Positions 1-10,757 of a stretch of DNA of 10,757 bases are shown one piece after another. Made by a program: the position numbers and the translations under genes. This stretch comes from a virus (lineage: Duplodnaviria; Heunggongvirae; Uroviricota; Caudoviricetes). The notes below the pieces were generated by a model that had not been told where the DNA came from, searched no databases, and was given only the letters and a program-made list of their open reading frames with translations. Each line of letters begins with the position of its first letter. Within the stretch, counting starts at the first letter, position 1. The stretch lies in the IMG/VR virus record IMGVR_UViG_2778261515_000020, positions 1 through 10,757 of that record. One strand, 5' to 3'.

Positions 1-588
1 TTCAGGCCAGATGACATCCGGCGCGGTGCTGGTATCTGTTGCCGTCACCGCGTCAGTGTAATCCAGCACGGCGTTAAGTCGGGTTGTTTCTGCCTGCGTC
101 AGTTTCCGTCCGGCCTGCAATTTCAGTTGAATCAGACTGATGGAAGCCATAGCAGCATCAATCAGTGACTGGCGCTGTGCTTCTGCCGCTTCGACTACGG
201 CGCTATGCTGTGCCTCAGTATCGGTCACCCATTTCTCACCATCCCATTTATCGTATGGAGATAAAGGGGCGATAGTGGTTGTATTTTCAGGGTAATCACC
301 CGGAGCTGTGATTTCTTTTGATTCTCCTGTTTCTGTGCTATAGACGATTTCACCGCGATGGTCTGGCACATATTCCCATGAATTTAAATTCACAGAACGA
401 CAGATTGCATAACCAACCTTATGTATGCCAGGTGCATCAAGACAGGAACATGCTGGAATACCGACCCCCACAGCAAGATATTCAGTTGATGTGGAAATAT
501 ATTCCCGTGTTTCACTATCATAGTTATAGACGGTAATATTCCCCGCCTTCGTGGCAATAAACTCGCTATTTAATACAGCATTATCCAT
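1..588 (-). CDS. Phage tail fiber assembly protein (Tfa/gpG-like), partial; C-terminus lies beyond the window start
   Basis: Hand translation of the minus strand from the ATG at 588-586 gives MDNAVLNSEFIATKAGNITVYNYDSETREYISTSTEYLAVGVGIPACSCLDAPG...APDVIWPE with no stop through position 1 (196 codons). The N-terminal motif and the DVIWPE-type C-terminal region are typical of enterobacterial Tfa proteins. The start overlaps the stop of the upstream cassette (TAATG). This ORF is absent from the supplied track because it is truncated. Confidence 0.8.
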   Translation of the reverse strand, partial: MDNAVLNSEFIATKAGNITVYNYDSETREYISTSTEYLAVGVGIPACSCLDAPGIHKVGYAICRSVNLNSWEYVPDHRGEIVYSTETGESKEITAPGDYPENTTTIAPLSPYDKWDGEKWVTDTEAQHSAVVEAAEAQRQSLIDAAMASISLIQLKLQAGRKLTQAETTRLNAVLDYTDAVTATDTSTAPDVIWPE

Positions 589-1034
589 TATGCAGCCCTC
601 ACGATATAGTTAAATGCAACATTTCGTGGGCGGGTTTCGTTACCGCCAGGGAGCTGAAAAGCGTTGATAATCCCACCGCTTGCCTGACTTATTCCATCCG
701 TGTACAACCCGCCACCGGCACTGTCGCTGAGTGCAAATGTTTTTGATGGTGAACTGTTTGAAGCTGGTCCCCAGTATTTTAATGCGAGCTTTCTGACTTC
801 ATCACTCTGAATACTCAATAAAGCACGCCCTGTATCAATGCTGCGCCCATCATCCCAGCCACGAATAAACTCACCGCGGAGATCAGGTAGTTTCCCTGAT
901 GGATATGCTGTAGCAAGACGGGGATATTTAACCTTATCAAAGGCAGCGCCATTGCATTTCAGCCAGCCTGTTGGCGGCGTAGCTGAAGGCCACGGAACAG
1001 GGACACCAACAGGTAATGCAGAGCCTTCTCCCAA
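588..1034 (-). CDS. Tail fiber C-terminal variable cassette B (tail-collar-like domain); promoterless 3' gene segment
   Basis: The ORF translation contains LPVGVPVPWPSATPPTGWLKCNGAAF...LPDLRGEFIRGWDDGR, which matches the phage tail collar domain pattern as I recall it. The first codon in the track is TTG, not ATG, and there is no RBS, so this is a cassette rather than a free-standing gene. It ends ...NYIVRAA with its stop overlapping the tfa start. Confidence 0.6.
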   Translation of the reverse strand: MGEGSALPVGVPVPWPSATPPTGWLKCNGAAFDKVKYPRLATAYPSGKLPDLRGEFIRGWDDGRSIDTGRALLSIQSDEVRKLALKYWGPASNSSPSKTFALSDSAGGGLYTDGISQASGGIINAFQLPGGNETRPRNVAFNYIVRAA

Positions 1035-1047
1035 ACCAACGTTTTTA
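807..1047. repeat. Direct repeat copy 1 (about 241 bp, roughly 85% identical by eye to 1294..1534); 5' conserved part of cassette B
   Basis: Visual alignment of the plus strand: ctgaatactcaataaa...ccaaaccaacgttttta is shared by both copies, with identity breaking sharply after gttttta. Confidence 0.75.
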
Positions 1048-1051
1048 TGCA
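1026..1051 (-). other. Candidate invertase crossover site (hix/gix/pix-like) at the 5' end of cassette B
   Basis: The minus strand reads TGCATAAAAACG-TT-GGTTTGGGAGAA, resembling the AAAACC-NN-GGTTT core of Hin/Gin-family sites as I remember them. It sits exactly at the homology breakpoint between cassettes A and B. Confidence 0.4.
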
Positions 1052-1563
1052 GCTCTCACAATAAAGTTGAATGCAATATTGCGCGGTCGTGTTTCGCTCC
1101 CGCCTGTGTTACCAATACTCCCTCGTGTATGTAGCGTTGGTGATGGAATCAGGGTTCCGCCTGCACTGGTACCATCCAGTCCCTTGCCCTGTGTATATGC
1201 TCTTCTGAAGATTGCCGCCAGTTCCCATACCTCTTTTGAGTCATACCCATCGTTGGCGACAACAGGATGACGGTGCTTTTCCAGCATTCCGGCCTGAATA
1301 CTCAATAAAACACGTCCAGCATCAATACCGCGCCCATCATCCCAGCCACGAATAAATTCACCGCGTAAATCAGGCAGTTTTCCTGACGGGTACGCTGTGG
1401 CTAGTTTGGGATACTTCAGCTTATCAAAGGCAGCACCATTGCATTTTAGCCAGCCCTCTGGAGGTGTGGCTGAAGGCCACGGAACTGTTACACCAACAGG
1501 CAACGCAGAACCTTCCCCCAAACCAACGTTTTTAACTTCGAAAACAGAGCTATCTAATAGCAT
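1045..1563 (-). CDS. Tail fiber C-terminal variable cassette A (tail-collar-like domain); promoterless 3' gene segment next to the invertase
   Basis: The translation has the same tail-collar-like motif (LPVGVTVPWPSATPPEGWLKCNGAAF...LPDLRGEFIRGWDDGRG), then a divergent middle, then the same C-terminal tail as cassette B (ETRPRNIAFNFIVRAA). There is no RBS upstream of the ATG at 1563. Its position next to the invertase matches the silent S'v-type segment of Mu G / P1 C / e14 P systems. Confidence 0.6.
   Translation of the reverse strand: MLLDSSVFEVKNVGLGEGSALPVGVTVPWPSATPPEGWLKCNGAAFDKLKYPKLATAYPSGKLPDLRGEFIRGWDDGRGIDAGRVLLSIQAGMLEKHRHPVVANDGYDSKEVWELAAIFRRAYTQGKGLDGTSAGGTLIPSPTLHTRGSIGNTGGSETRPRNIAFNFIVRAA
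1294..1534. repeat. Direct repeat copy 2 (about 241 bp); 5' conserved part of cassette A
   Basis: Visual alignment with 807..1047. A second shorter shared block, about 75% identical by eye, lies at the cassette 3' ends (591..648 versus 1048..1105). Confidence 0.75.
1513..1538 (-). other. Candidate invertase crossover site (hix/gix/pix-like) at the 5' end of cassette A
   Basis: The minus strand reads AAGTTAAAAACG-TT-GGTTTGGGGGAA. The right half and centre are shared with the cassette B site and the left half differs, as with hixL versus hixR. It lies about 55 bp upstream of the invertase start. Confidence 0.4.
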
Positions 1564-1591
1564 TTTTACTAACAGAAACAGGATGCTTTTT

Positions 1592-2191
1592 ATGCAAATT
1601 GGCTATATTCGCGTATCAACAAATGACCAGAACACGGATTTGCAACGCAATGCGCTCAATAGCGCAGGATGTGAACTGATTTTTGAAGATAAAATCAGCG
1701 GAACAAAATCAGCCAGACCGGGATTGAAAAAACTGCTCAGAACGTTATCAGCGGGGGATACGCTCGTTGTCTGGAAACTGGACAGGCTGGGCAGAAGCAT
1801 GAAACACCTGATCACACTGATTGAGGAATTGCGGAAAAAAGGTGTCAATTTTCGTAGTCTGACGGATTCAATTGATACCAGTACCCCAATGGGACGATTT
1901 TTCTTCCACGTGATGGGCGCCCTGGCTGAAATGGAACGTGAATTAATTGTAGAGCGTACACTGGCCGGACTGGCAGCAGCCCGCGCACAGGGGCGAATTG
2001 GTGGGCGTCGCCCGAAACTGACAAAAGAGCAACATGAGCAAATAGCGAGGCTGATTAAAAACGGCCACGACAGAAAACAGCTGGCCATAATTTACGACAT
2101 CGGTATATCGACGATTTATCGTTATCACCCTGTAGGTGACACGCAACCCGGAGGAATAATTGAGAATACTCAGGAAACAAAAAACCGCTAA
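1592..2191 (+). CDS. Serine-recombinase DNA invertase, Hin/Gin/Cin/Pin family
   Basis: MQIGYIRVSTNDQNTDLQRNAL...DTLVVWKLDRLGRSMKHL...SLTDSIDTSTPMGRFFFHVMGALAEMERELIVERTLAGLAAARAQGRIGGRRPKLT closely resembles the Hin and Pin sequences as I recall them, including the catalytic Ser in IRVST and a C-terminal HTH. The start was chosen at the ATG at 1592 (AGGA 8 nt upstream). The track ORF from 1397 is an upstream artefact. Confidence 0.9.
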   Translation: MQIGYIRVSTNDQNTDLQRNALNSAGCELIFEDKISGTKSARPGLKKLLRTLSAGDTLVVWKLDRLGRSMKHLITLIEELRKKGVNFRSLTDSIDTSTPMGRFFFHVMGALAEMERELIVERTLAGLAAARAQGRIGGRRPKLTKEQHEQIARLIKNGHDRKQLAIIYDIGISTIYRYHPVGDTQPGGIIENTQETKNR

Positions 2192-2211
2192 TCTGAACAT
2201 TAGCGGTTTTT
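2181..2211. terminator. Bidirectional intrinsic terminator between the convergent invertase and U genes
   Basis: Perfect 12-bp stem AAAACCGCTAAT / ATTAGCGGTTTT around a 6-nt loop (CTGAAC), with A-tract on one side and T-tract on the other. The stem overlaps the invertase stop codon (2189-2191) and lies 9 nt from the U stop. Confidence 0.6.
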
Positions 2212-2219
2212 ACGTTAAA

Positions 2220-2708
2220 TCAGAACACCCCTTTAACTGAGCTGACCACATTGTTAAGGGATGATGTCACCTTATCTTTAAGACCGGACAGCATATCACT
2301 GAACGATGAGGATTGCAGGCGCTCCCGCAAATCCTCATCACAGCGTTCAAGGGTCAGGGAAAACTCTATCTTTTTCGCTTTCCCGTAGCGATCCAGTTCA
2401 GAGCGGGTCGTGCTCGTTTCAGTCAGAACATACATGCCGTAAATCTGCCCGACGCCATCAATCAGAGGCCACGGGCGTCCCGCATACGCCTGCGTGGCCA
2501 GCAGCGACAGCGACACTTCGCCGCCTGTAATCTCAGGATAAAGCACGCCGGAAAGAACGATGCGATCATCACCTGCACCGATATACTGCCAGCTTGCTGA
2601 ACGGTTAACGCGCTCGTTTTTCACATGTCGCCAGCTTTTGTTTTGCTGTAACTGCTGATGCGGTAATGTGCGCAACTCAAAAACAAACATGCCGTAGATC
2701 ATCATCAT
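2220..2708 (-). CDS. U: P2 gpU-like tail protein
   Basis: 162 aa beginning MMMIYGMFVFELRTLPHQQLQ...WPLIDGVGQIYGMYV, resembling P2 gpU as I recall it. AAGGAG lies 7 nt upstream of the ATG and overlaps the T stop. It sits immediately downstream of T, as in P2. Confidence 0.85.
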   Translation of the reverse strand: MMMIYGMFVFELRTLPHQQLQQNKSWRHVKNERVNRSASWQYIGAGDDRIVLSGVLYPEITGGEVSLSLLATQAYAGRPWPLIDGVGQIYGMYVLTETSTTRSELDRYGKAKKIEFSLTLERCDEDLRERLQSSSFSDMLSGLKDKVTSSLNNVVSSVKGVF

Positions 2709-2719
2709 GGCACGACTCC

Positions 2720-5557
2720 TTACTCTTTATCATAAAAGCTACCACGCCCGGCACGGGTACGCCGCTCCAGTTCTGCCCTGACCATTTCGCCGACCAGTTT
2801 CGCCAGTTCGCGGGGATTCTGCGTAACAACGTTATGCAGATGGACATGAATTTCACCACCAAATTCGGGTGCCGCAGTCTCCCGGCTGCGGGAAGATGCG
2901 GAAACGGGCGCAACTGGCGCACGTGCGGCCTCCACGACCGGACGGGAGCTTGCTGCAACAACAGGGGGCAACACCGGAGATAACGGAGCCGGGACCACGG
3001 GTGTGATGTTGATTGCGGAAGCAGGCTTACTGACCTGCGCAATCTTCCGCTCCTGCCACTCCCCGCGAACAGCAAGCGCACGGGGCAGGTTCTTAAAGAC
3101 AATATCACCGGGGCCGATACGCTTTTTCGTCTCATCAACCAGCTTGCCTGTGTTATCTGCAATTTTGCTGAGCCTGCGCAGCGTGCCAGTGTTGTTGTCC
3201 GTGAGCGGCTTGTTGTCTTTAGGCTTATCGCCTCCGGTCCCTGTTTCCGCAGATTTCGGCGGATTGATTTTTGCCAGGTCCCCCTGAAGCAAAGCAACCT
3301 TGTCCTGAAGAATGGCCGCACGCTGCGCGTCTTCGATTTTCTTTCTCGCCCTTTCCGCTTCATCTGGAAGGACGCCAAGTTTTTCCAGTATCCATGCCAG
3401 CGTATCCAGCAGCATTTTTGCAGGCGTCAGGACAAGCTGTAACGCACCGCCAAGAACGTTGCCGAACACCTCGCCAGCACTGGTGCATTTATCCAGCGTT
3501 TCCTTACTGGATTCCATCGGTGACAGCAGCGATGTAAACCAGTTAAAGACCTGAATCACGCCATCACGAACTAGTTCGAAAACAGGGCCAAACCGTTCAA
3601 AGGTTTCGCGTAACGGGGCCAGCCGCTCCATAATCCCGCTGAACACCCCGGCAAAAAATGCCCTGATTGGGTCCCAGTATTTCCAGATGAGAGCGGCAGC
3701 TCCGGCAAGCGCAGCCACGATAAGACCGACCGGGCTGAACAACGCCCCGATAGCGCCTCCAAGTAAAGAGACGGAACCCGCCACCATTCCCCACAGCGCT
3801 GGCAGGACCCTGACAGCATTCATTGATCCGGTCAGGAGGGAAAAACCAAGACGCAGTTTTGCCAGCGGGCCAGCAAGCACCCCAAGAGCCAGTGACAACG
3901 AGCCAACCGTTGCAGTCATTGCCAGCAGCGCACCGCCTGCAATCAGTAGCTGGCGCGTCAGTGCCGGATGGGCCTGCGCCAGCTCCGTCACCTTTGAGAC
4001 CACCCGAGTGAGCCACTGCGTGACAGAGCGCAGCGGACCGTCAATCAGATCCGCAATGCGGATACGCAGCCCCTCCCATGCACTGCCGAGTGATCTCAGG
4101 TCGCCATCAAGGTTATTGGCCATAACCTTTGCCGTGCGTTCAGCCTCACCGCGTGCGCCTTCAAGTTCTTTTCTCAGCTTGGGCAGAGAACCGTCACCTG
4201 CCGCATCAACGAGGGCCATAAATGACGTGAAGGCCTCTTCTCCGGCTATGTCCTTAAAGAACGATACCCGGTCAACTTCCCCGTATTTGCGGGTGGCTTT
4301 ATAAAGGTCGGCCAGCACATCCTCCATCGGGCGCATTTTGCCGTTCGCATCAGAGACAGCCACACCAAGCTCTTTCAGCGCCTCTGCTGCCGCCTTTGGC
4401 GGTGATGCCAGACGAGCAAGGCTGGCACGCATTGCCGTCCCGGCATCACTCCCTCTGATACCCATATTCGCCAGCACGCCCGCCATCGCTGCGGCCTGCT
4501 CCAGCGATATTCCCAGCTTACCCGCCACCGGACCTGCATATTTCATGGTTTCGCCCAGCGCGCGAAGGTCGGTGTTAGTACGGGTAAACGCCGCAGTAAG
4601 TGTGTCGCCGACCCGGTCCATCTGGTCAGCAGAGAGACCGAACTGCGTCAGGATATTTGAGCCAATATCCGCCGTCTCGCCAAGGTCCATACCGCCAGCC
4701 GTTGCCATGCTCAGCACGCCGGGAAGCGCAGCCTGAATGGCTTCTGGTGTGAAGCCAGCCATAGCAAGAAATGCCTGCCCACTGGCGGCATCACTCGCAG
4801 TAAACTGCGTTTCAGAGCCGAGCTTTAGCGCCTGCTCACGCAGCGCCTTAAACTGCGGGCTGTTCTGGTCAATTCGCGTCAGCGCCTGCACACGGGACAT
4901 CTCTTTCCCGAATCCGATAGCGGGCTGCAAAAAACGCCCGGCAGCATAGCCGCCAGCCGCTGCCGCACCAGTTGCCAGCGCACCACCCGTTTTCAGTTTT
5001 CCCGCTGTTTCCTGCGCGCGTGAATACTGCTCACGCGCCCGCGTTACACGCGCAAGCGCCTGTCGTTCGCGTTCAAGCTGGTTGTTGTACTGTTCGGTGC
5101 GTCTGATGGCCTGCTGGATGGTGTTATCGCTGCCTGTCAGGGAAATACCGTGGCGTTTAAGCTCTCCGCCAAGCTCCCGCATTTTCTGAATTTCCCGCGT
5201 GCGCGATTCATTCAGGCGTTCAAGCCGGGTGCTTAACTGCTGCATCAGCCTTTGTTGTTTTTCGCTGAGCACAGTACCCGTGCGTTGTAACTGATGAAGG
5301 GCGTTAAGCTGGCGTCGTGCTTTCACGATGCCAGCATCCGCTTTACTGACAGCATCGCGGGCGCGCTCAAATGAACGCGCCTGACGCTCGAGATTTTTGA
5401 TTGCCCCCTGCGTTTGCTGGATGGAGTCACCAAGCCGCCCCATCAGGCGGCGGGCGTTTTCGGCTGGCCGGGTCAGCCTGTCAACAGCACTGAAGGCGAC
5501 CCGAATGTCAAGAGTCTTCATTGTCTGCATTCCCACTGCGAAGTGCCGCCCGCTCAC
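2720..5557 (-). CDS. T: Tail tape measure protein (P2 gpT-like)
   Basis: ORF of about 945 aa with coiled-coil-like Q/R/E/A-rich N-terminal half, a central hydrophobic glycine/alanine-rich segment, and a position between E/E' and U. The start is uncertain: the longest ORF begins with GTG at 5557, and in-frame ATGs at 5530 and 5521 are alternatives. Confidence 0.8.
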   Translation of the reverse strand: MSGRHFAVGMQTMKTLDIRVAFSAVDRLTRPAENARRLMGRLGDSIQQTQGAIKNLERQARSFERARDAVSKADAGIVKARRQLNALHQLQRTGTVLSEKQQRLMQQLSTRLERLNESRTREIQKMRELGGELKRHGISLTGSDNTIQQAIRRTEQYNNQLERERQALARVTRAREQYSRAQETAGKLKTGGALATGAAAAGGYAAGRFLQPAIGFGKEMSRVQALTRIDQNSPQFKALREQALKLGSETQFTASDAASGQAFLAMAGFTPEAIQAALPGVLSMATAGGMDLGETADIGSNILTQFGLSADQMDRVGDTLTAAFTRTNTDLRALGETMKYAGPVAGKLGISLEQAAAMAGVLANMGIRGSDAGTAMRASLARLASPPKAAAEALKELGVAVSDANGKMRPMEDVLADLYKATRKYGEVDRVSFFKDIAGEEAFTSFMALVDAAGDGSLPKLRKELEGARGEAERTAKVMANNLDGDLRSLGSAWEGLRIRIADLIDGPLRSVTQWLTRVVSKVTELAQAHPALTRQLLIAGGALLAMTATVGSLSLALGVLAGPLAKLRLGFSLLTGSMNAVRVLPALWGMVAGSVSLLGGAIGALFSPVGLIVAALAGAAALIWKYWDPIRAFFAGVFSGIMERLAPLRETFERFGPVFELVRDGVIQVFNWFTSLLSPMESSKETLDKCTSAGEVFGNVLGGALQLVLTPAKMLLDTLAWILEKLGVLPDEAERARKKIEDAQRAAILQDKVALLQGDLAKINPPKSAETGTGGDKPKDNKPLTDNNTGTLRRLSKIADNTGKLVDETKKRIGPGDIVFKNLPRALAVRGEWQERKIAQVSKPASAINITPVVPAPLSPVLPPVVAASSRPVVEAARAPVAPVSASSRSRETAAPEFGGEIHVHLHNVVTQNPRELAKLVGEMVRAELERRTRAGRGSFYDKE

Positions 5558-6040
5558 GCCAGCTAACCACTTCGCCGGGCGTCATCATGAAGATTTCGGC
5601 GGGCGACCAGTTAAAAATAACGGCAATATCTGCCACAAAGTCTTCTATGTGCTCAAAGCACACAACCGTGATCAGGCTTCCGTCGCCTGTTCGTTCTTCC
5701 CGCCAGAGTCCGCACCGCTCAAAAAATTTACGGCAACCACACATAACTGAATAAAGTCACGGGATGCCATTTTTTTGATCGTCACTTCATCCAGTCGCGG
5801 TGATGTCACGCGTGACAACAGCGTAAACATGGATTCCGCTTTCAGACTCAGCACATCAGACAGCGACAGACCACGCAGGGATCCAGCCTGCTCAATAGCC
5901 CCGGTGATCTCCACATACGTGATTTTTTCGTCGCCTCGCTCAATTGGCTGGGTAAGTTTTACGCCGCGCTCGCTGGTTTCTTTCGCAGTATCAGCAACCA
6001 CCACAGCGTTTTCAGTATCGGTATTTTTCGTCTCTTTCAT
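5508..6040 (-). CDS. Tail assembly chaperone E+E' fusion made by programmed -1 ribosomal frameshift
   Basis: Slippery heptamer T TTT TTG in the zero frame of E (minus strand, 5720..5726, codons Asn-Phe-Leu 105-107). The -1 frame continues ...FFERCGLWREERTGDGSLITVVCFEHIEDF...NADNEDS to a stop at 5508, matching the track ORF 5508..5744 and overlapping the T start. This is the same arrangement as P2 E/E' and lambda G/GT. Confidence 0.7.
5672..6040 (-). CDS. E: Tail assembly chaperone gpE-like (zero-frame product)
   Basis: 122-aa ORF between FII and T. GAAAGGAG lies 8 nt upstream of the ATG at 6040. It contains the frameshift heptamer near its 3' end. Confidence 0.8.
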   Translation of the reverse strand: MKETKNTDTENAVVVADTAKETSERGVKLTQPIERGDEKITYVEITGAIEQAGSLRGLSLSDVLSLKAESMFTLLSRVTSPRLDEVTIKKMASRDFIQLCVVAVNFLSGADSGGKNEQATEA

Positions 6041-6094
6041 CAGAAAACTCCTTTCAGTCAGAGGCGACGCACTGCGCCGCCTGCATATTACTTA

Positions 6095-6607
6095 TCAGCC
6101 GAGCCCGAGCGCGGAGCGGATGCGGTCGGGTACAATGTCCTTGCCATCCTTCCGGTAGATGTGGTTCACCAGGTCAATTTCCCACACCGGACGATCGTTA
6201 ATACTCAGCTTGTAGTAGGTGTTTTTGACAGCGTAAGTGTGTGACGTGGCTTCGCCCTGTTTGGCCTCCCCCATATCAATTTCCGTCACACGCCCGCGCA
6301 TCTCGATTTCATACAGGTCGCTTTCTGCATCGGTGTAGTATTCACCCGCAAAACGCAGCAGCGTGCCGTCCATTGTTCCGCCATATTTAAGGAACAGCGC
6401 ACGAACGGCGCCACCCATGACAAAACTCGCATCAAGCGCGGAATCGTCCAGGCCGAGGTCGATACTCACCGCTCCCAGCATGCCACCACCACGATAGCTG
6501 TCGGTTTTACGCGTCAGTTTAGGCGGGGTGACAGACGTCACCTTACCCACTTCATTTTCACCATCCACAAACAGCGTAAAAAAACGAAGATGTTTTGGTA
6601 CGGCCAT
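6095..6607 (-). CDS. FII: Tail tube protein (P2 FII-like)
   Basis: 170 aa at the right size and position for P2 FII. Its start overlaps the FI stop (TAATG). Confidence 0.88.
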   Translation of the reverse strand: MAVPKHLRFFTLFVDGENEVGKVTSVTPPKLTRKTDSYRGGGMLGAVSIDLGLDDSALDASFVMGGAVRALFLKYGGTMDGTLLRFAGEYYTDAESDLYEIEMRGRVTEIDMGEAKQGEATSHTYAVKNTYYKLSINDRPVWEIDLVNHIYRKDGKDIVPDRIRSALGLG

Positions 6608-7791
6608 TAAGCACCTCCAAGCACTGCAAATGCAGGACCAAAGAACTCATCAGTGAACGCCTGGTAAAGCTCCATATCTTCCAGCGGAGGAACGGGCGTA
6701 TATTTATAGCGAATACGCACGCGCCCCTGTCGTAATTCTGTGGTGCTGTTATCCACGATGTCATACCAGCACGATGCGCCAATCAGTTTCCCGGCAGTAA
6801 CCAGCGAATCCAGTTTTGCCCTGATGGCACTGATAACATCCTTCACGTTCGCGGGCGTCAGTGGACTGTCGATGGTTTCAAACTGCGCTTCCGCAATTGA
6901 ATCAGCCAGCACCTGTGCGGTTCGGGTATACACCTCAAAGATGTAGGCATTCGTTTCCGGTGTGCGGTTGCCCCAGAAGCGGAACCCGTTGCGGCGAATG
7001 ATGGTTGTGATTTCTTTGTTGTTGAGGCTGTTGGCATCGCTGTCAGCAGCCTGCAACGACCAGAACACATGCCTGGACATCCCCAGCACATTTTTGACCG
7101 GAACGTTGGACAGCGATTTGTGCCAGCCCTGCTCATGGTCAATGTACGCACGAAGGCCGCACGCATAGGCTGGCGCGGGGAAAACCTCATTCTCGCCACT
7201 TTTCGGGTTGTAAGCGATGAAGTCCGGCCACAGGAGCATCAGCTCGCGTTCGTTGAATTTTTCACGGTATGCAATGGCTTCAGCCATCGTGTTACAGCCA
7301 TGACAGGAGGCATACACAAACGCGCGCAGTTTACCTGCAATCACGCACAGGGATTTTGTCACCGCCTCCGTGTCCAGCCCCGGCGCGGCCAGAATACGCG
7401 GACGGTATCCGATGCTTTCATCCTGCTCTGCAACAAGCAGCGCATACATCCCCGTATAGCTGCCGTCGGATTCAGAACCACCAATAACCAGTTGATCCTG
7501 TGTTTTTCCGTCTTCTTCTTTGTGTTCAGCCACGCGAACGACGATCACCTTTGTGCTCACCTGGTCTGCAATGGGTTTCAGCGCACGGTACAGCGTCCCC
7601 GTTGTCCCGCATTTTCCCAGCACGTCATTGACGCGGGTCACTAATGCAGGCTTGTTCAGCGGGAACAGCTTCGCGTCCGCATCGTCCGCCGTTGCCACGA
7701 TACCGATAACGCTGGAATCAACGTCGTTAATTGCTGTTACCAGGTCGGTACTTTCCGTAACGCGGGCGCCATGAAAACGAGTTTCACTCAT
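6607..7791 (-). CDS. FI: Contractile tail sheath protein (P2 FI-like)
   Basis: 394 aa with motifs I recall from P2 FI (LSNV.V...FW.LQ..., TLIRR.GFRFWGNRT, YTRTAQV.AD, YTPVPPLE). AAGGGG RBS upstream of the ATG at 7791. Confidence 0.9.
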   Translation of the reverse strand: MSETRFHGARVTESTDLVTAINDVDSSVIGIVATADDADAKLFPLNKPALVTRVNDVLGKCGTTGTLYRALKPIADQVSTKVIVVRVAEHKEEDGKTQDQLVIGGSESDGSYTGMYALLVAEQDESIGYRPRILAAPGLDTEAVTKSLCVIAGKLRAFVYASCHGCNTMAEAIAYREKFNERELMLLWPDFIAYNPKSGENEVFPAPAYACGLRAYIDHEQGWHKSLSNVPVKNVLGMSRHVFWSLQAADSDANSLNNKEITTIIRRNGFRFWGNRTPETNAYIFEVYTRTAQVLADSIAEAQFETIDSPLTPANVKDVISAIRAKLDSLVTAGKLIGASCWYDIVDNSTTELRQGRVRIRYKYTPVPPLEDMELYQAFTDEFFGPAFAVLGGA

Positions 7792-7948
7792 AGCTTCAGC
7801 CCCTTGTATCCGTTAAATGATTCGGCAACAATCATCACCCACCACGCGCGTAATCTCACCCCTGCGACGTTCTCCCGCCACGGCGACAACAAAAAGCAGT
7901 AACCCCCTCCGCACGCACATGCGACCATGCCGCACAGGGAGGGAACAG

Positions 7949-9049
7949 ATGACCGACACCACCATGCAATTGCTCAGTCAGGGCACAGACCCCGTGAAAA
8001 TGCCGGATTTTGATATTCTCGCGGAGGGTAAAACGCTGTCAGGCGTGGCAGAGCGCCTGATGAGCCTGTCACTGACCGACAACCGGGGATTTGAGGCGGA
8101 CCAGCTCACCATCACGCTGGATGATGCAGATGGTCAGTTGCAGCTACCGCCACGGGGCGCGCGCCTGACGGTTCTCATTGGCTGGAAAGGAGAACCGCTG
8201 ACAGAAAAAGGCACTTACATTGTTGATGAAATCGCTCACGAAGGACCGCCGGACAGGCTGACTGTTTCAGCCAGAAGCGCAGATTTTCGGGATGAATTTA
8301 ACGTTAAACGTGAGGTGTCCTGGCATGATGTGACCGTTGAGCGTGTGGTATCCGCCATCGCTCATCGGTACGGTCTGAAACCGCAAATCAGCGAAATGCT
8401 GATGGATATCGAAATCGACCACGCCGACCAGACCGAAGAAAGCGACATGTCCTTTCTTACGCGCATGGCGGAAATGCTGGGCGCAATCACCACGGTAAAA
8501 AGCGGTAATCTGTTATTCATTATGCCAGGCGGTGGCGTGAACGCACAGGGCCAGCCGTTGCCATCGTTCGCCATCACGCGCAGCAGTGGCGATCGCCATC
8601 AGTTCCGCATTGCTGACCGCGAAGCGTATACGGGGGTACGCGCTTACTGGCTTGATCTTAATTACGGGAAAAAGAAAAAAGTCAGCGTGAAACGCCGTAA
8701 ACCGAAAATGGAGAAAAGCAGTAGCCGTGAAGGCGACTATATGGAAGGTGCGGAAGGCAACGTGTTTGTGTTACGCAAGACTTATCAGAACGAACAGGCA
8801 GCAAGACGCGCTGCGGCGGCAAAGTGGCAGCAGCTACAACGCGGAGCCGCATCATTCTCCATCACACTGGCACGTGGACGCGCAGAACTCTACCCCGAAA
8901 TGCATGGCACGGTAACAGGATTTAAAAGCGAGATTGATAATCAGGACTGGATTATTGCAAAAGCCGAGCACACCATTGATAACAGCGGCTTTACCACGCA
9001 GCTTGAGCTTGAGGCAAAAATCCCGGAATGGATAGCGGAAACAGAGTGA
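7949..9049 (+). CDS. D: Late control / tail protein gpD-like
   Basis: Long ORF with a lysine-rich patch (GKKKKVSVKRRKPK) and overall gpD-like character. The start was chosen at the ATG at 7949 (GGGAGGG 5 nt upstream), not the alternative-start extension to 7817 in the track. Confidence 0.85.
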   Translation: MTDTTMQLLSQGTDPVKMPDFDILAEGKTLSGVAERLMSLSLTDNRGFEADQLTITLDDADGQLQLPPRGARLTVLIGWKGEPLTEKGTYIVDEIAHEGPPDRLTVSARSADFRDEFNVKREVSWHDVTVERVVSAIAHRYGLKPQISEMLMDIEIDHADQTEESDMSFLTRMAEMLGAITTVKSGNLLFIMPGGGVNAQGQPLPSFAITRSSGDRHQFRIADREAYTGVRAYWLDLNYGKKKKVSVKRRKPKMEKSSSREGDYMEGAEGNVFVLRKTYQNEQAARRAAAAKWQQLQRGAASFSITLARGRAELYPEMHGTVTGFKSEIDNQDWIIAKAEHTIDNSGFTTQLELEAKIPEWIAETE

Positions 9050-9091
9050 GCAACTTAGAATAGCGGCAGCACCACGTTAAGGGAGGTCGCT

Positions 9092-9352
9092 ATGTTCCGT
9101 TGTCCGCTTTGTGGCGCATCTGCCCGTATCCGCACCAGTCGTCCAGAAAATGATTCAAACACCGTGCGGCAAAAGTATTACCAGTGTAACAATCTGGAAT
9201 GCGGCGTATGCTTCTCAACACTGGAAGCTTTCCATAAATTCACATCAAAACACGCCTCCGGCGTTCACTCTTCAGAAGGTATCCCGTGGCATGATCTGCC
9301 AGCTTCACACAGGGGAAACAATCAGATGAGTTTGCCTTTACCTCAGAATTAA
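9092..9352 (+). CDS. ogr: Ogr/Delta-family zinc-finger late transcription activator
   Basis: MFRCPLCGASARIRTSR...YYQCNNLECGVCF is a Cys4 arrangement (C-x2-C ... C-x4-C) with clear N-terminal similarity to P2 Ogr as I recall it (MFHCPLC...ARTSR...YHQCQNVNC). Strong GGGAGG RBS. Located directly after D, as in P2. Confidence 0.85.
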   Translation: MFRCPLCGASARIRTSRPENDSNTVRQKYYQCNNLECGVCFSTLEAFHKFTSKHASGVHSSEGIPWHDLPASHRGNNQMSLPLPQN

Positions 9353-9750
9353 CAGACAGAATTGCCGGAGTAACAAAAAAAGCGATACACCCATTTACCC
9401 GGCAGTACCACTCCCCCGCCCCATAGCTGGCAGTGAGGCGGGATGTTTTGCCTACCCGCCAGCAGGCACCATCGTGGAAATATCCAACATTGAAGGACGC
9501 CCGGATAAGCCTGTTATCAGGCAAATCTTACCCATCGGTCATAACCTGCCTGATGTAAAGCCCGGCGAACAATTGCAACAACAGCGTGCAGAAGTGTTTC
9601 AGCATGTCACGACTGACGGAAGCTGGCGCAGAAAAACCGACCAGCAAATCCAAGAAGAAAAGCGCGTAAAACGATCACTGCTGATGTGGCGTTGCTTTAT
9701 ACAAGCTGCTATTTGCGATATGCTGAACACATCAACCTGTGGAGTGCATT

Positions 9751-10377
9751 ATGAAACAAAAATCAAAGTCTGCTGCCATTGCTGCTATTGCTACAGCTCT
9801 GACAGCATCACTGGCTCCGGTGCCAGCTAAAAGCACGATACTACCAACAACAGTTATTGAATCCGTGACACACGCCAGAGTGGTTTCAATGCTTACATTT
9901 GAGCATCATGATGGTCAGGTGTTTCTGCCTCTTGAAGAAGCTATTGAATATATCAACGGGCTGAATGACAACATGCGTGCCGCGCTCAATGCAGTCATTG
10001 AAGAACGACAGAACAGAGGCAAGGGAGCTCTGTTTGCTGACAAAACCGCAAAAATCATAAAAATATGCGAAGAGTCACTTAAGCAGCACAGCCGTGTTAA
10101 AGAGGCTGTCAAAATTGTAATGGATCCGGATAACCTGGCAAAAATGTATCCGGATAGCATGGAGCAAAGAATCGCCTATCGCAATAAACTGGTTCGTTTT
10201 GGTCGGGCAATTGCGCAGGGAGAGTTTATCGCTCGTGATGCCATCAACGCCATCAAACGAAGCACCGCACCAGACAAAACGACCAGCCTAGGCAATACGC
10301 TGTCTGACGGAAATGTGAAAGCAATGATTATTGCCGAGCATAAAAACATGGGACTCCCGGCACCGGAGTTTTCCTGA
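9751..10377 (+). CDS. Hypothetical protein (208 aa) with a hydrophobic N-terminal segment; first gene of a two-gene cargo operon and candidate partner of the downstream YafO-like protein
   Basis: Start chosen at the ATG at 9751 (GGAG 6 nt upstream); the track begins at an upstream GTG. The N-terminus MKQKSKSAAIAAIATALTASLAPVPA looks like a signal peptide or membrane anchor. I recognise no family. Its stop overlaps the next start (TGATG). Codon usage looks AT-richer than the tail genes. Confidence 0.6.
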   Translation: MKQKSKSAAIAAIATALTASLAPVPAKSTILPTTVIESVTHARVVSMLTFEHHDGQVFLPLEEAIEYINGLNDNMRAALNAVIEERQNRGKGALFADKTAKIIKICEESLKQHSRVKEAVKIVMDPDNLAKMYPDSMEQRIAYRNKLVRFGRAIAQGEFIARDAINAIKRSTAPDKTTSLGNTLSDGNVKAMIIAEHKNMGLPAPEFS

Positions 10378-10757
10378 TGGCAAGCAAAGTAAGCATTCAT
10401 AAAGATGTTGAATACCAGGACATTGCAAAAGTTTACGGAAAGGCTCTGGAAAACTGGTTAAATACCGGTGTTCTCCCTGACAGATTCGGCAATGAAGGGC
10501 AGTGGGAAGATAACGCAAGATTATGTGGTTCGTTTGTATATAAATTACACATAAGACTACCGTCAGAACCACCATGGAAGAAAAGCAAAGCCCAAATAGA
10601 CAGAACTTCAAATATCTATCTGGTTTATACAAGGCACTGGATGGATTATGACAATATACAAATCATCAGCATCATGGCCCCAGATGCTCACGAAAAAGCC
10701 AAAACTTCTTTCATGGCTGAGCTGGAAAGACGGGCAGAAGAATTCCAGAACTCATAA
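10377..10757 (+). CDS. YafO-family toxin-like protein (putative ribosome-dependent mRNA interferase)
   Basis: 126 aa. It shares with E. coli YafO, as I recall its sequence, the motifs GVLPDRFG (YafO GVLPDIFG), HIRL (HIHL), DRTSNIYLVYTRH (RTNDEAHLVYCQG), IISIMAPDAHEKA (LIAILKPEPHKLA) and MAELER (MAEAFR). The assignment is from memory, not from a database search. Confidence 0.5.
   Translation: MASKVSIHKDVEYQDIAKVYGKALENWLNTGVLPDRFGNEGQWEDNARLCGSFVYKLHIRLPSEPPWKKSKAQIDRTSNIYLVYTRHWMDYDNIQIISIMAPDAHEKAKTSFMAELERRAEEFQNS

Follow-up and report, generated by a model that had tools for sequence, protein, structure and literature searches.

A YafO-family toxin gene and a gene of a new partner family as a candidate toxin-antitoxin cassette in a P2-like prophage

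Introduction

Two overlapping genes lie just beyond the last recognisable gene of a P2-like prophage, and one of them encodes a protein that resembles YafO-family toxins. What might the two proteins do together, and are their genes cargo of the prophage? The locus is found at the end of a 10,757-nucleotide stretch of viral DNA (IMG/VR record IMGVR_UViG_2778261515_000020, positions 1 to 10,757), which as a whole is called the window here, and the two genes are termed ORF-A (208 amino acids) and ORF-B (126 amino acids). An earlier note, made from the letters of the window, had regarded them as a possible non-canonical toxin-antitoxin (TA) or abortive-infection module carried as prophage cargo, or as a host flank. 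Our analysis suggests, with a probability of about 0.6, that the core of this locus is a non-canonical type II-like TA cassette in which a YafO toxin is combined with a partner of a new family. Few RelE-type toxins are as poorly understood as YafO, for which most partners have yet to be identified.

The window is identical to Escherichia coli UMNK88 (NC_017641.1), a porcine enterotoxigenic E. coli strain. Its content, i.e., a putative tail-fibre switch, gpU, tape measure, tube, sheath, gpD and ogr, is that of the tail end of a P2-like prophage of the P88/Xuanwuvirus type.

A coupled gene pair encodes a YafO-family protein and an unrecognised partner

The pair and its junction are as follows.

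9751 to 10377, plus strand: ORF-A (208 amino acids; ATG at 9751, TGA at 10375-10377), putative antitoxin or partner, read from the sequence.
10377 to 10757, plus strand: ORF-B (126 amino acids; ATG at 10377, TAA at 10755-10757), YafO-family (RelE/BECR-type) toxin, assigned by Pfam PF13957.
10365 to 10379, plus strand: translational-coupling junction, read from the sequence, with GGAG at 10365-10368 within the Pro-Glu codons of ORF-A and the TGATG overlap at 10375-10379.

ORF-A is preceded by a Shine-Dalgarno sequence (GGAG at 9741-9744, 6 nt before the start). The corresponding signal of ORF-B lies inside the end of ORF-A, which agrees with the TGATG-coupled arrangement that had been noticed before, and the tight junction is retained in nearly all loci that we compared.

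ORF-B matched the Pfam family YafO_toxin (PF13957) with 96.5 bits (cutoff 25; E = 1.1e-27) over model positions 2-101 of 101, and BLASTP gave 31% identity with YafO of E. coli K-12 (E = 3e-9), so that the YafO-like appearance of the downstream product is borne out by a significant profile match. It also matched phrog_1651. The score against the NCBIfam YafO equivalog PRK09885 was 42.7 bits, far below the cutoff of 153, and together with the 31% identity this indicates that ORF-B is a family member of a distinct subclade and not an orthologue of K-12 YafO. At 90% identity, the subclade falls into 46 clusters, almost all of them from members of the Enterobacterales. In an alignment of K-12 YafO, subclade members and phage homologues, the residues G38, H58, R76, L82, I99, P102, H105 and F123 are invariant, and all of them, including the candidate catalytic His and Arg residues, are present in ORF-B, which looks intact by this measure. 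The protein stands alone, with no leader and no delivery domain. A search of the PDB for relatives of ORF-B revealed no solved structure of the YafO family. K-12 YafO has been described as an endoribonuclease that cleaves mRNA, and it is debated whether it depends on the ribosome (PMC8546651, PMC11980606).

The partner gave no match in Pfam, NCBIfam, PADLOC or PHROGs. A profile search against PDB sequences returned nothing below E = 0.97, and its predicted fold had no informative structural relative. An hhalign comparison with K-12 YafN gave a probability of 0.6%, and a YafN (Phd/YefM) identity is therefore rejected; the earlier description of the 208-residue protein as unrecognised and unlike YafN holds across all four model libraries.

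The ORF-A family is very small. In 5.8 billion proteins it is represented by 38 clusters, an exhaustive HMMER search of 1.84 billion proteins gave 32 representatives, and 185,579 species-representative genomes contain 18 loci. Many members of the family (ORF-A and P0003-P0035) carry the NCBI name "iron-sulfur cluster assembly scaffold protein SufA", which we consider a misannotation. The hhalign probability against K-12 SufA was 0.8% and covered a 25-residue patch only (LTFEHHDGQVFLPL versus LLFEHDGAKLFVPL), the HesB/SufA domain was absent from the Pfam and NCBIfam matches at E <= 1, and ORF-A has a single cysteine.

The two genes are inherited together

In 21 of the first 22 loci, a YafO homologue follows the ORF-A homologue on the same strand at a distance of 0-40 nt. 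The sole exception, a locus of Photorhabdus caribbeanensis, has a truncated ORF-A. When the search was started from the toxin side, in taxa outside the list of ORF-A matches (Salmonella, Dickeya, Yersinia and a metagenome), an ORF-A homologue of 199-206 amino acids was again found upstream. Across the loci, identity to the window proteins is 49-86% for the toxin and 28-70% for the partner. A toxin that is more conserved than its partner is usual in TA pairs.

Eroded copies, in which ORF-A is truncated and the toxin gene is missing, occur at L023 6001-6474 (the P. caribbeanensis locus) and in the metagenomic contigs L036 (106-585) and L037 (86-565), which hold the truncated partner P0108. These are consistent with decay of the partner after toxin loss. 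No third gene is consistently linked to the pair among the loci compared. No Rfam family reached its gathering score and no repeat array was found, and these negatives argue against an RNA antitoxin.

ORF-A is predicted to be helical with a conserved C-terminus

ORF-A can be divided into a signal-peptide-like leader (residues 1-26), a variable low-confidence linker (27-55), a bundle of a strand and long helices (56-171) and a conserved C-terminal helix and tail (186-208, VKAMIIAEHKNMGLPAPEFS). Two AlphaFold2 (AF2) runs gave the same topology, with a pLDDT of 74 from 22 sequences and 80 from 25 more diverse sequences. The predicted elements are listed by residue number.

Residues 5-18: helix.
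Residues 21-25: strand.
Residues 31-50: low-confidence loop.
Residues 56-60: strand.
Residues 61-89: long helix.
Residues 99-132: long helix, split at 124/126.
Residues 137-171: long helix.
Residues 186-199: C-terminal helix.

A ribbon-helix-helix reading of residues 55-90 (the VFLPL strand followed by two helices) was tried and rejected, because both runs placed one continuous helix at 61-89; in addition, conservation is lacking at the Gly of the supposed turn, and the ribbon-helix-helix families gave no match.

In a diverse alignment, E196 and H197 of the C-terminus are invariant, and I193, L200 and G201 are nearly so. Leaderless partners of about 190-200 amino acids also lie upstream of distant YafO genes in the P22-like phage CUS-3 and in a Flyfo siphovirus, and their C-termini read SHKRFGMEAPKW and SHILLGAEPPNW. 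In a profile-profile comparison of ORF-A with the CUS-3-type partners, only the last ~27 columns aligned (E = 9e-4, probability 23%). Homology over the whole protein is not demonstrated by this comparison, as the alignment is confined to the C-terminal motif. This recurrence beside YafO genes is suggestive of the C-terminal region as the likeliest toxin contact.

The cassette is self-contained and lies within the prophage

Upstream of ORF-A, a candidate promoter was found where it had been predicted.

9696 to 9724, plus strand: candidate sigma-70 promoter (TTTATA at 9696-9701, 17-nt spacer, TATGCT at 9719-9724), from sequence and footprint.

Of its 12 hexamer positions, 8 agree with the consensus, and our promoter scan, with a threshold of 9, consequently did not report it. 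Both hexamers are invariant across three E. coli variants, including a cassette of 76% identity in which the spacer differs at 6 of 10 positions, and this conservation can reasonably be regarded as a phylogenetic footprint. The stop codon of ORF-B forms the last bases of the window, and an intrinsic terminator follows 20 nt further on (L001 16778-16807). A 35-bp terminator sequence (equivalent to window 10778-10812) is identical in phage P88. The full cassette is about 1.1 kb long.

On the other side, the pair is separated from the phage backbone by two features.

9092 to 9352, plus strand: ogr/Delta-type zinc-finger late-gene activator, the last backbone gene (Pfam Ogr_Delta, E = 5e-14; RefSeq annotation).
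9372 to 9650, plus strand: pseudogene remnant, a 279-bp internal fragment of a gene for a 565-residue tail-fibre/spike-like protein, forming the left edge of the cassette (blastn, 90-93% identity to L002/L004 4648-4926).

Megablast homology to P88-like phages ends at about 9387 (query position 388). The fragment corresponds to residues 299-395 of the 565-residue protein with 88% identity (tblastn), and RefSeq also annotates it as a partial pseudogene. Window positions 9651-10831 are 98% identical to E. coli islands by raiA and ytfP, where the gene for the 565-residue protein lies ahead of the pair; compared with these islands, the window has a deletion of about 1 kb at the 9650/9651 junction. 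Thus, the cassette was brought in together with part of the gene that had adjoined it, and the loss of about 1 kb followed. The GC content of the cassette is 41-47%, versus 51-57% in the phage structural genes.

The prophage is flanked by dmsA and serS. Its att core, AAAGCGCCCGCAGGCGCTTT, is a 20-bp palindrome identical to the serS terminator. One copy adjoins int (L005 20759-20778) and the other lies at L001 16950-16969, equivalent to window 10949-10968. Homology to K-12 begins exactly at this second copy, which places attR about 190 bp past the end of the window and the pair within the prophage. The earlier alternative of cargo or host flank is thereby settled for cargo: the cassette is foreign to the backbone and lies on the prophage side of the att core, and the host-flank part falls.

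The pair is rare in E. coli. It was found in 24 of 5,426 complete genomes, next to ogr in 16 of them, as a second variant in 7 (two were inspected and lie by raiA) and by ytfP in 1. Beside serS, 347 E. coli genomes have the 191-bp arm of phage DNA that separates the att core from the cassette terminator, versus 24 genomes with the YafO pair; prophages that use the serS site therefore carry other cargo, or no cargo, in most cases.

The cassette occupies several cargo slots

The interval between ogr and att holds hok/gef in P88 (L006 2045-2305) and a "TagO-like" gene with a hypothetical gene in Shae_phiSM (L007 3449-4679), and is a further variable cargo slot of Xuanwuvirus-type prophages. In E. 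coli E7-1N7, a Hok/Gef gene lies just past the pair (L003 7403-7543). In the raiA islands (L002 7533-9002, L004 7501-8970), the pair is followed by a gene for a 489-residue AAA_15/AAA_21 "ATP-dependent nuclease" of the OLD/Gabija-like ATPase type and by a methyltransferase remnant, a small neighbourhood that is defence-island-like.

A second slot, between the replication gene gpA and the portal/terminase genes of P2-like prophages, holds the pair in Symbiopectobacterium, Erwinia tracheiphila, Serratia symbiotica and Salmonella, and two more E. coli subtypes occupy it beside StbA/ParM cargo. The gpA-gpQ interval is the antiviral hotspot of P2, which Rousset et al. 2022 defined and in part validated (PMC9122126). 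In five loci the pair follows an HP1_ORF34 baseplate gene and the gene for the 565-residue protein, in one it lies by an integrase gene, and in Dickeya it follows lysis genes. The cassette is horizontally mobile between hotspots.

A proposed toxin-antitoxin mechanism

We propose the following model for the cassette, which with its own promoter, ORF-A, ORF-B and terminator would be a self-contained mobile unit carried as cargo between ogr and attR. ORF-B would be an endoribonuclease toxin that arrests translation by cutting mRNA. ORF-A would be its dedicated proteic antitoxin, of a new family, and would bind YafO directly in the cytoplasm, probably through the conserved C-terminal helix and tail (AEH-x2-LG-x2-P-x-F). 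The repeated residence in cargo and defence slots of P2- and HP1-type elements would be explained by abortive infection or superinfection exclusion combined with prophage stabilisation: an infecting phage would stop the supply of the presumably shorter-lived ORF-A, and the toxin would be freed. Toxicity, its neutralisation by ORF-A, the binding region and the defence role are all inferred here from sequence. The obligate synteny, the pattern of conservation and the residence in a defence hotspot make a TA or abortive-infection function plausible. The estimate of about 0.6 applies to the TA core; the defence role, taken alone, is a tentative proposal that we place somewhat short of even odds.

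Several observations weigh against the proposed TA cassette. No operator-like palindrome or inverted repeat was found in 9640-9770, and no helix-turn-helix, ribbon-helix-helix, AbrB or Phd domain was matched in ORF-A by Pfam at E <= 1; a cryptic DNA-binding surface on ORF-A is conceivable. ORF-A is bigger than its toxin, a departure from textbook type II antitoxins. The C-terminal stretch in which ORF-A resembles other YafO partners is short and the match only weakly significant, and the last four residues of ORF-A are partly constrained by the Shine-Dalgarno sequence of the toxin gene. No model of PADLOC-DB v2.0.0 matched either protein, and literature searches turned up no YafO module reported to confer resistance to phages. 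Finally, in 38 of 43 family clusters the ORF-A leader has the features of a cleavable Sec signal peptide by a heuristic, Phobius called a signal peptide in an ORF-A homologue catalogued by Rousset et al. (PMC9122126), and an efficiently exported ORF-A would have no hold on a cytoplasmic toxin.

The leading alternative keeps the TA pair and assigns it a purely selfish role, in which it would act as an addiction module through post-segregational killing and give no anti-phage protection. The pair does lie at the edges of mobile elements (at attR here, at int or island ends elsewhere), where stabilising modules are common, and the same slot in P88 holds an addiction-type gene, hok/gef. The empty defence-library search and the lack of any link between YafO systems and defence in the literature searched also fit this alternative. 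However, the module recurs in the gpA-gpQ hotspot, which is experimentally enriched for antiviral systems, and two E. coli loci have the ATP-dependent nuclease and the methyltransferase remnant as neighbours. Addiction and defence are not mutually exclusive, and we consider an exclusively selfish role a serious contender with perhaps a quarter of the weight.

The leader of ORF-A

Why would a cytoplasmic antitoxin carry a signal-peptide-like leader? The N-terminus of ORF-A is indeed basic and then hydrophobic, as the earlier note had remarked of its hydrophobic character. It reads MKQKSKS-AAIAAIATALTASLAPVPA-KS, ends in an invariant LAPVPA and has a candidate cleavage site between A26 and K27. 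Our heuristic required a net-basic start (2-4 basic residues), at least 12 uncharged residues, V or I at -3 and A at -1; P0005 and P0110 were judged by eye. The uncharged stretch spans 12-22 residues, is rich in Ala, Ser and Thr and contains Pro helix-breakers.

A second alternative takes these features at face value. ORF-A would be exported or membrane-anchored with a periplasmic body and would serve as an envelope sensor or exclusion protein with no direct antitoxin function, while the YafO-like protein would be controlled otherwise or be non-toxic on its own. Besides the widespread signal-peptide features and the Phobius call, this alternative is favoured by the most distant family members, in which the hydrophobic core drifts freely and the V-x-A positions (-3 and -1) stay, and by the variable, low-confidence linker at 27-55.

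Other features of the leader point the other way. Across 20 loci, A22-P23-V24-P25 and S28 do not vary, which exceeds the needs of signal peptidase. At each of the four positions A22-P25 all four synonymous codons occur, so the selection acts on the protein and not on the DNA, and an overlapping DNA or RNA element is rejected as the cause of the conservation. Both AF2 runs built residues 21-25 into the fold by pairing this strand with the strand at 56-60 (VFLPL), the other most conserved segment. Moreover, two lineages have N-termini that cannot be Sec leaders, namely the Salmonella-type ORF-A (P0086, MGSVAIDIVTALNARLAPVPAAS), whose start is backed by GAGG and has no in-frame extension, and P0092 (MRVAQINKSRIISELSASMAPAPEA). 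Both precede intact YafO genes within P2 hotspots.

The toxin side also argues against an exported ORF-A. The targets of YafO toxins, mRNA or ribosomes, are cytoplasmic, and ORF-B is leaderless. The two genes are coupled and co-inherited with no third conserved gene, and the Rfam and repeat-array searches yielded no RNA antitoxin candidate to take the place of ORF-A. We therefore regard an ORF-A that works solely in the envelope as unlikely. The leaderless lineages, the selection on the leader, the strand pairing and the cytoplasmic toxin together suggest that the neutralising function needs no export.

The leader of ORF-A is a real and selected feature, and may act as a membrane tether, a degron or a lifetime-limiting export route. 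A bolder version, which we offer as an improbable but specific idea, is a secretion-timed antitoxin. The uncleaved ORF-A precursor would hold YafO in the cytoplasm or at the inner membrane, Sec export with cleavage between APVPA and xS would steadily drain ORF-A, and shutoff by a phage or an upset of translocation or of the membrane would free the toxin. If so, this would be a TA or abortive-infection switch timed by secretion and not by Lon/Clp proteolysis.

Tail genes, host flank and other features of the prophage

Could the pair instead be an effector and its adaptor for a contractile tail or spike, as in type VI secretion system or tailocin loci? The five loci with HP1_ORF34 and the 565-residue fibre/spike-like gene, and the fragment at 9372-9650 with its weak VgrG-type match (E = 1e-4, 20.9 bits versus a cutoff of 121.8), might suggest this. 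However, at least five other genera have the pair either between gpA and the portal gene, well away from the tail genes, or in simple chromosomal islets. There is no downstream immunity gene, ORF-B has no delivery domain and the VgrG-type match is far below threshold. Since the tail-gene neighbourhood is not conserved, we reject this alternative, whose chances appear very slight. That the pair is host flank or consists of functionless chance ORFs, as its position beyond the last recognisable phage gene and near serS might suggest, is practically negligible, because attR lies beyond it, the region is missing from K-12, and both ORFs are found at three sites in just 24 of 5,426 E. coli genomes and are conserved across Enterobacterales under protein-level selection.

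Several further features of the same prophage were observed. In its gpA-portal hotspot (L005 8718-12088, outside the window) are genes for an S8-family peptidase (741 amino acids) and an AAA ATPase (373 amino acids), which are a probable second accessory or defence module. Also outside the window, an IS3-family element splits a virion morphogenesis gene and a tail-fibre gene is frameshifted (L001 284-2235 and 4658-6159). The prophage is probably defective, with its cargo genes still intact.

In the first part of the window, a Gin/Cin-type serine recombinase gene (1592-2191) lies beside opposed genes for tail-fibre C-termini and assembly proteins (plus strand, 158-760; minus strand, 732-1175 and 1177-1563), and the minus-strand ORFs 588-1034 and 1045-1563 have similar N-terminal sequences. 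The region 158-2191 looks like an invertible host-range switch. For gpD (7817-9049), the RefSeq start gives a 263-residue "VgrG/Pvc8 family" protein (8258-9049), preceded by a small pseudogene that overlaps it. However, the reading frame is open back to 7817 (410 amino acids), with an odd N-terminus, and the start or the integrity of gpD may be compromised.

Discussion

The locus brings to light a discrete family of YafO partners, very rare, whose members accompany one YafO subclade in the cargo slots of P2- and HP1-type prophages, including an experimentally validated antiviral hotspot. The pair would be a compact candidate defence system, of a kind that was catalogued earlier and left uncharacterised. 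The annotation of the family can also be corrected, both where members are named "SufA" and where the partner is labelled "hypothetical". If the likeness of the C-termini reflects toxin binding, a small family of YafO partners would share a portable C-terminal toxin-binding module. The signal-peptide-like leader is an anomaly for a presumed cytoplasmic antitoxin, and could reveal a new route for shortening the life of an antitoxin or a release of the toxin that is tied to the envelope.

Comparison with known systems

A characterised relative in organisation is the yafN-yafO pair of E. coli K-12, part of the dinB-yafN-yafO-yafP operon. Both pairs have a PF13957 toxin with shared invariant residues, and in both the partner gene comes first and the toxin gene follows tightly (K-12 coordinates: end of yafN, 252298; start of yafO, 252301). 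However, the toxins are just 31% identical, and the partner here has 208 residues, against 97 in YafN, is not of the Phd/YefM type, bears a leader and matched no DNA-binding domain. The pair in the window is prophage cargo, whereas yafNO belongs to the SOS-regulated dinB operon.

TAC systems (HigBA-SecB), in which a SecB-like export chaperone controls the stability of the antitoxin, are a conceptual precedent for an antitoxin whose fate is tied to the export machinery. Unlike TAC, the present cassette has no third gene, and a Sec-type leader on the antitoxin itself would replace the chaperone-addiction tail; the link is hypothetical.

P2 Old/Tin and the cargo of P2 hotspots resemble the cassette as AT-rich accessory genes in a variable slot between conserved landmarks. 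Abortive-infection TA systems with a labile antitoxin would also be comparable, as a stable toxin with a continuously supplied partner would fit. No sequence relationship exists with any of these, and the resemblance is positional and conceptual.

In the wider literature, too, few YafO partners have been identified. In a 2023 survey of E. coli, known antitoxins made up only 8% of the YafO partner clusters (PMC10790755), and Leplae 2011 described YafO partners as Phd-type or unclassified. The text of a 2026 survey of P2 hotspots, its supplement aside, does not mention YafO. The partners in CUS-3 and Flyfo are similar to ORF-A in being helical, about 190-200 amino acids long and encoded just upstream of or overlapping a YafO-family gene, with a C-terminal (S/E)H-x2-(L/F)G-x2-(A/P)P-x-(W/F). 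They differ in having no hydrophobic leader or APVPA, and their toxins are 25-33% identical to ORF-B.

The whole module has a homologous counterpart in system #123, "YafO_toxin", in Table S5B of Rousset et al. (PMC9122126), which is listed there with 24 occurrences and no note and is absent from the main text and from the tested set. Its protein 1 (197 amino acids, MSSKKNKITSMAAALAVALAPVPASS...) belongs to the ORF-A family and is near-identical to P0094, and it is this "protein 1" that is entered in the Phobius signal peptide column. Its protein 2 is a 126-residue YafO with about 58% identity to ORF-B, and the system is likewise found in P2-like prophages of E. coli. It differs from the window pair in its slot, gpA-portal as against ogr-attR, and in sequence, ORF-A being about 24% identical to P0094. 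The module type is therefore already catalogued, and the pair in the window is a divergent subtype of it in a different slot.

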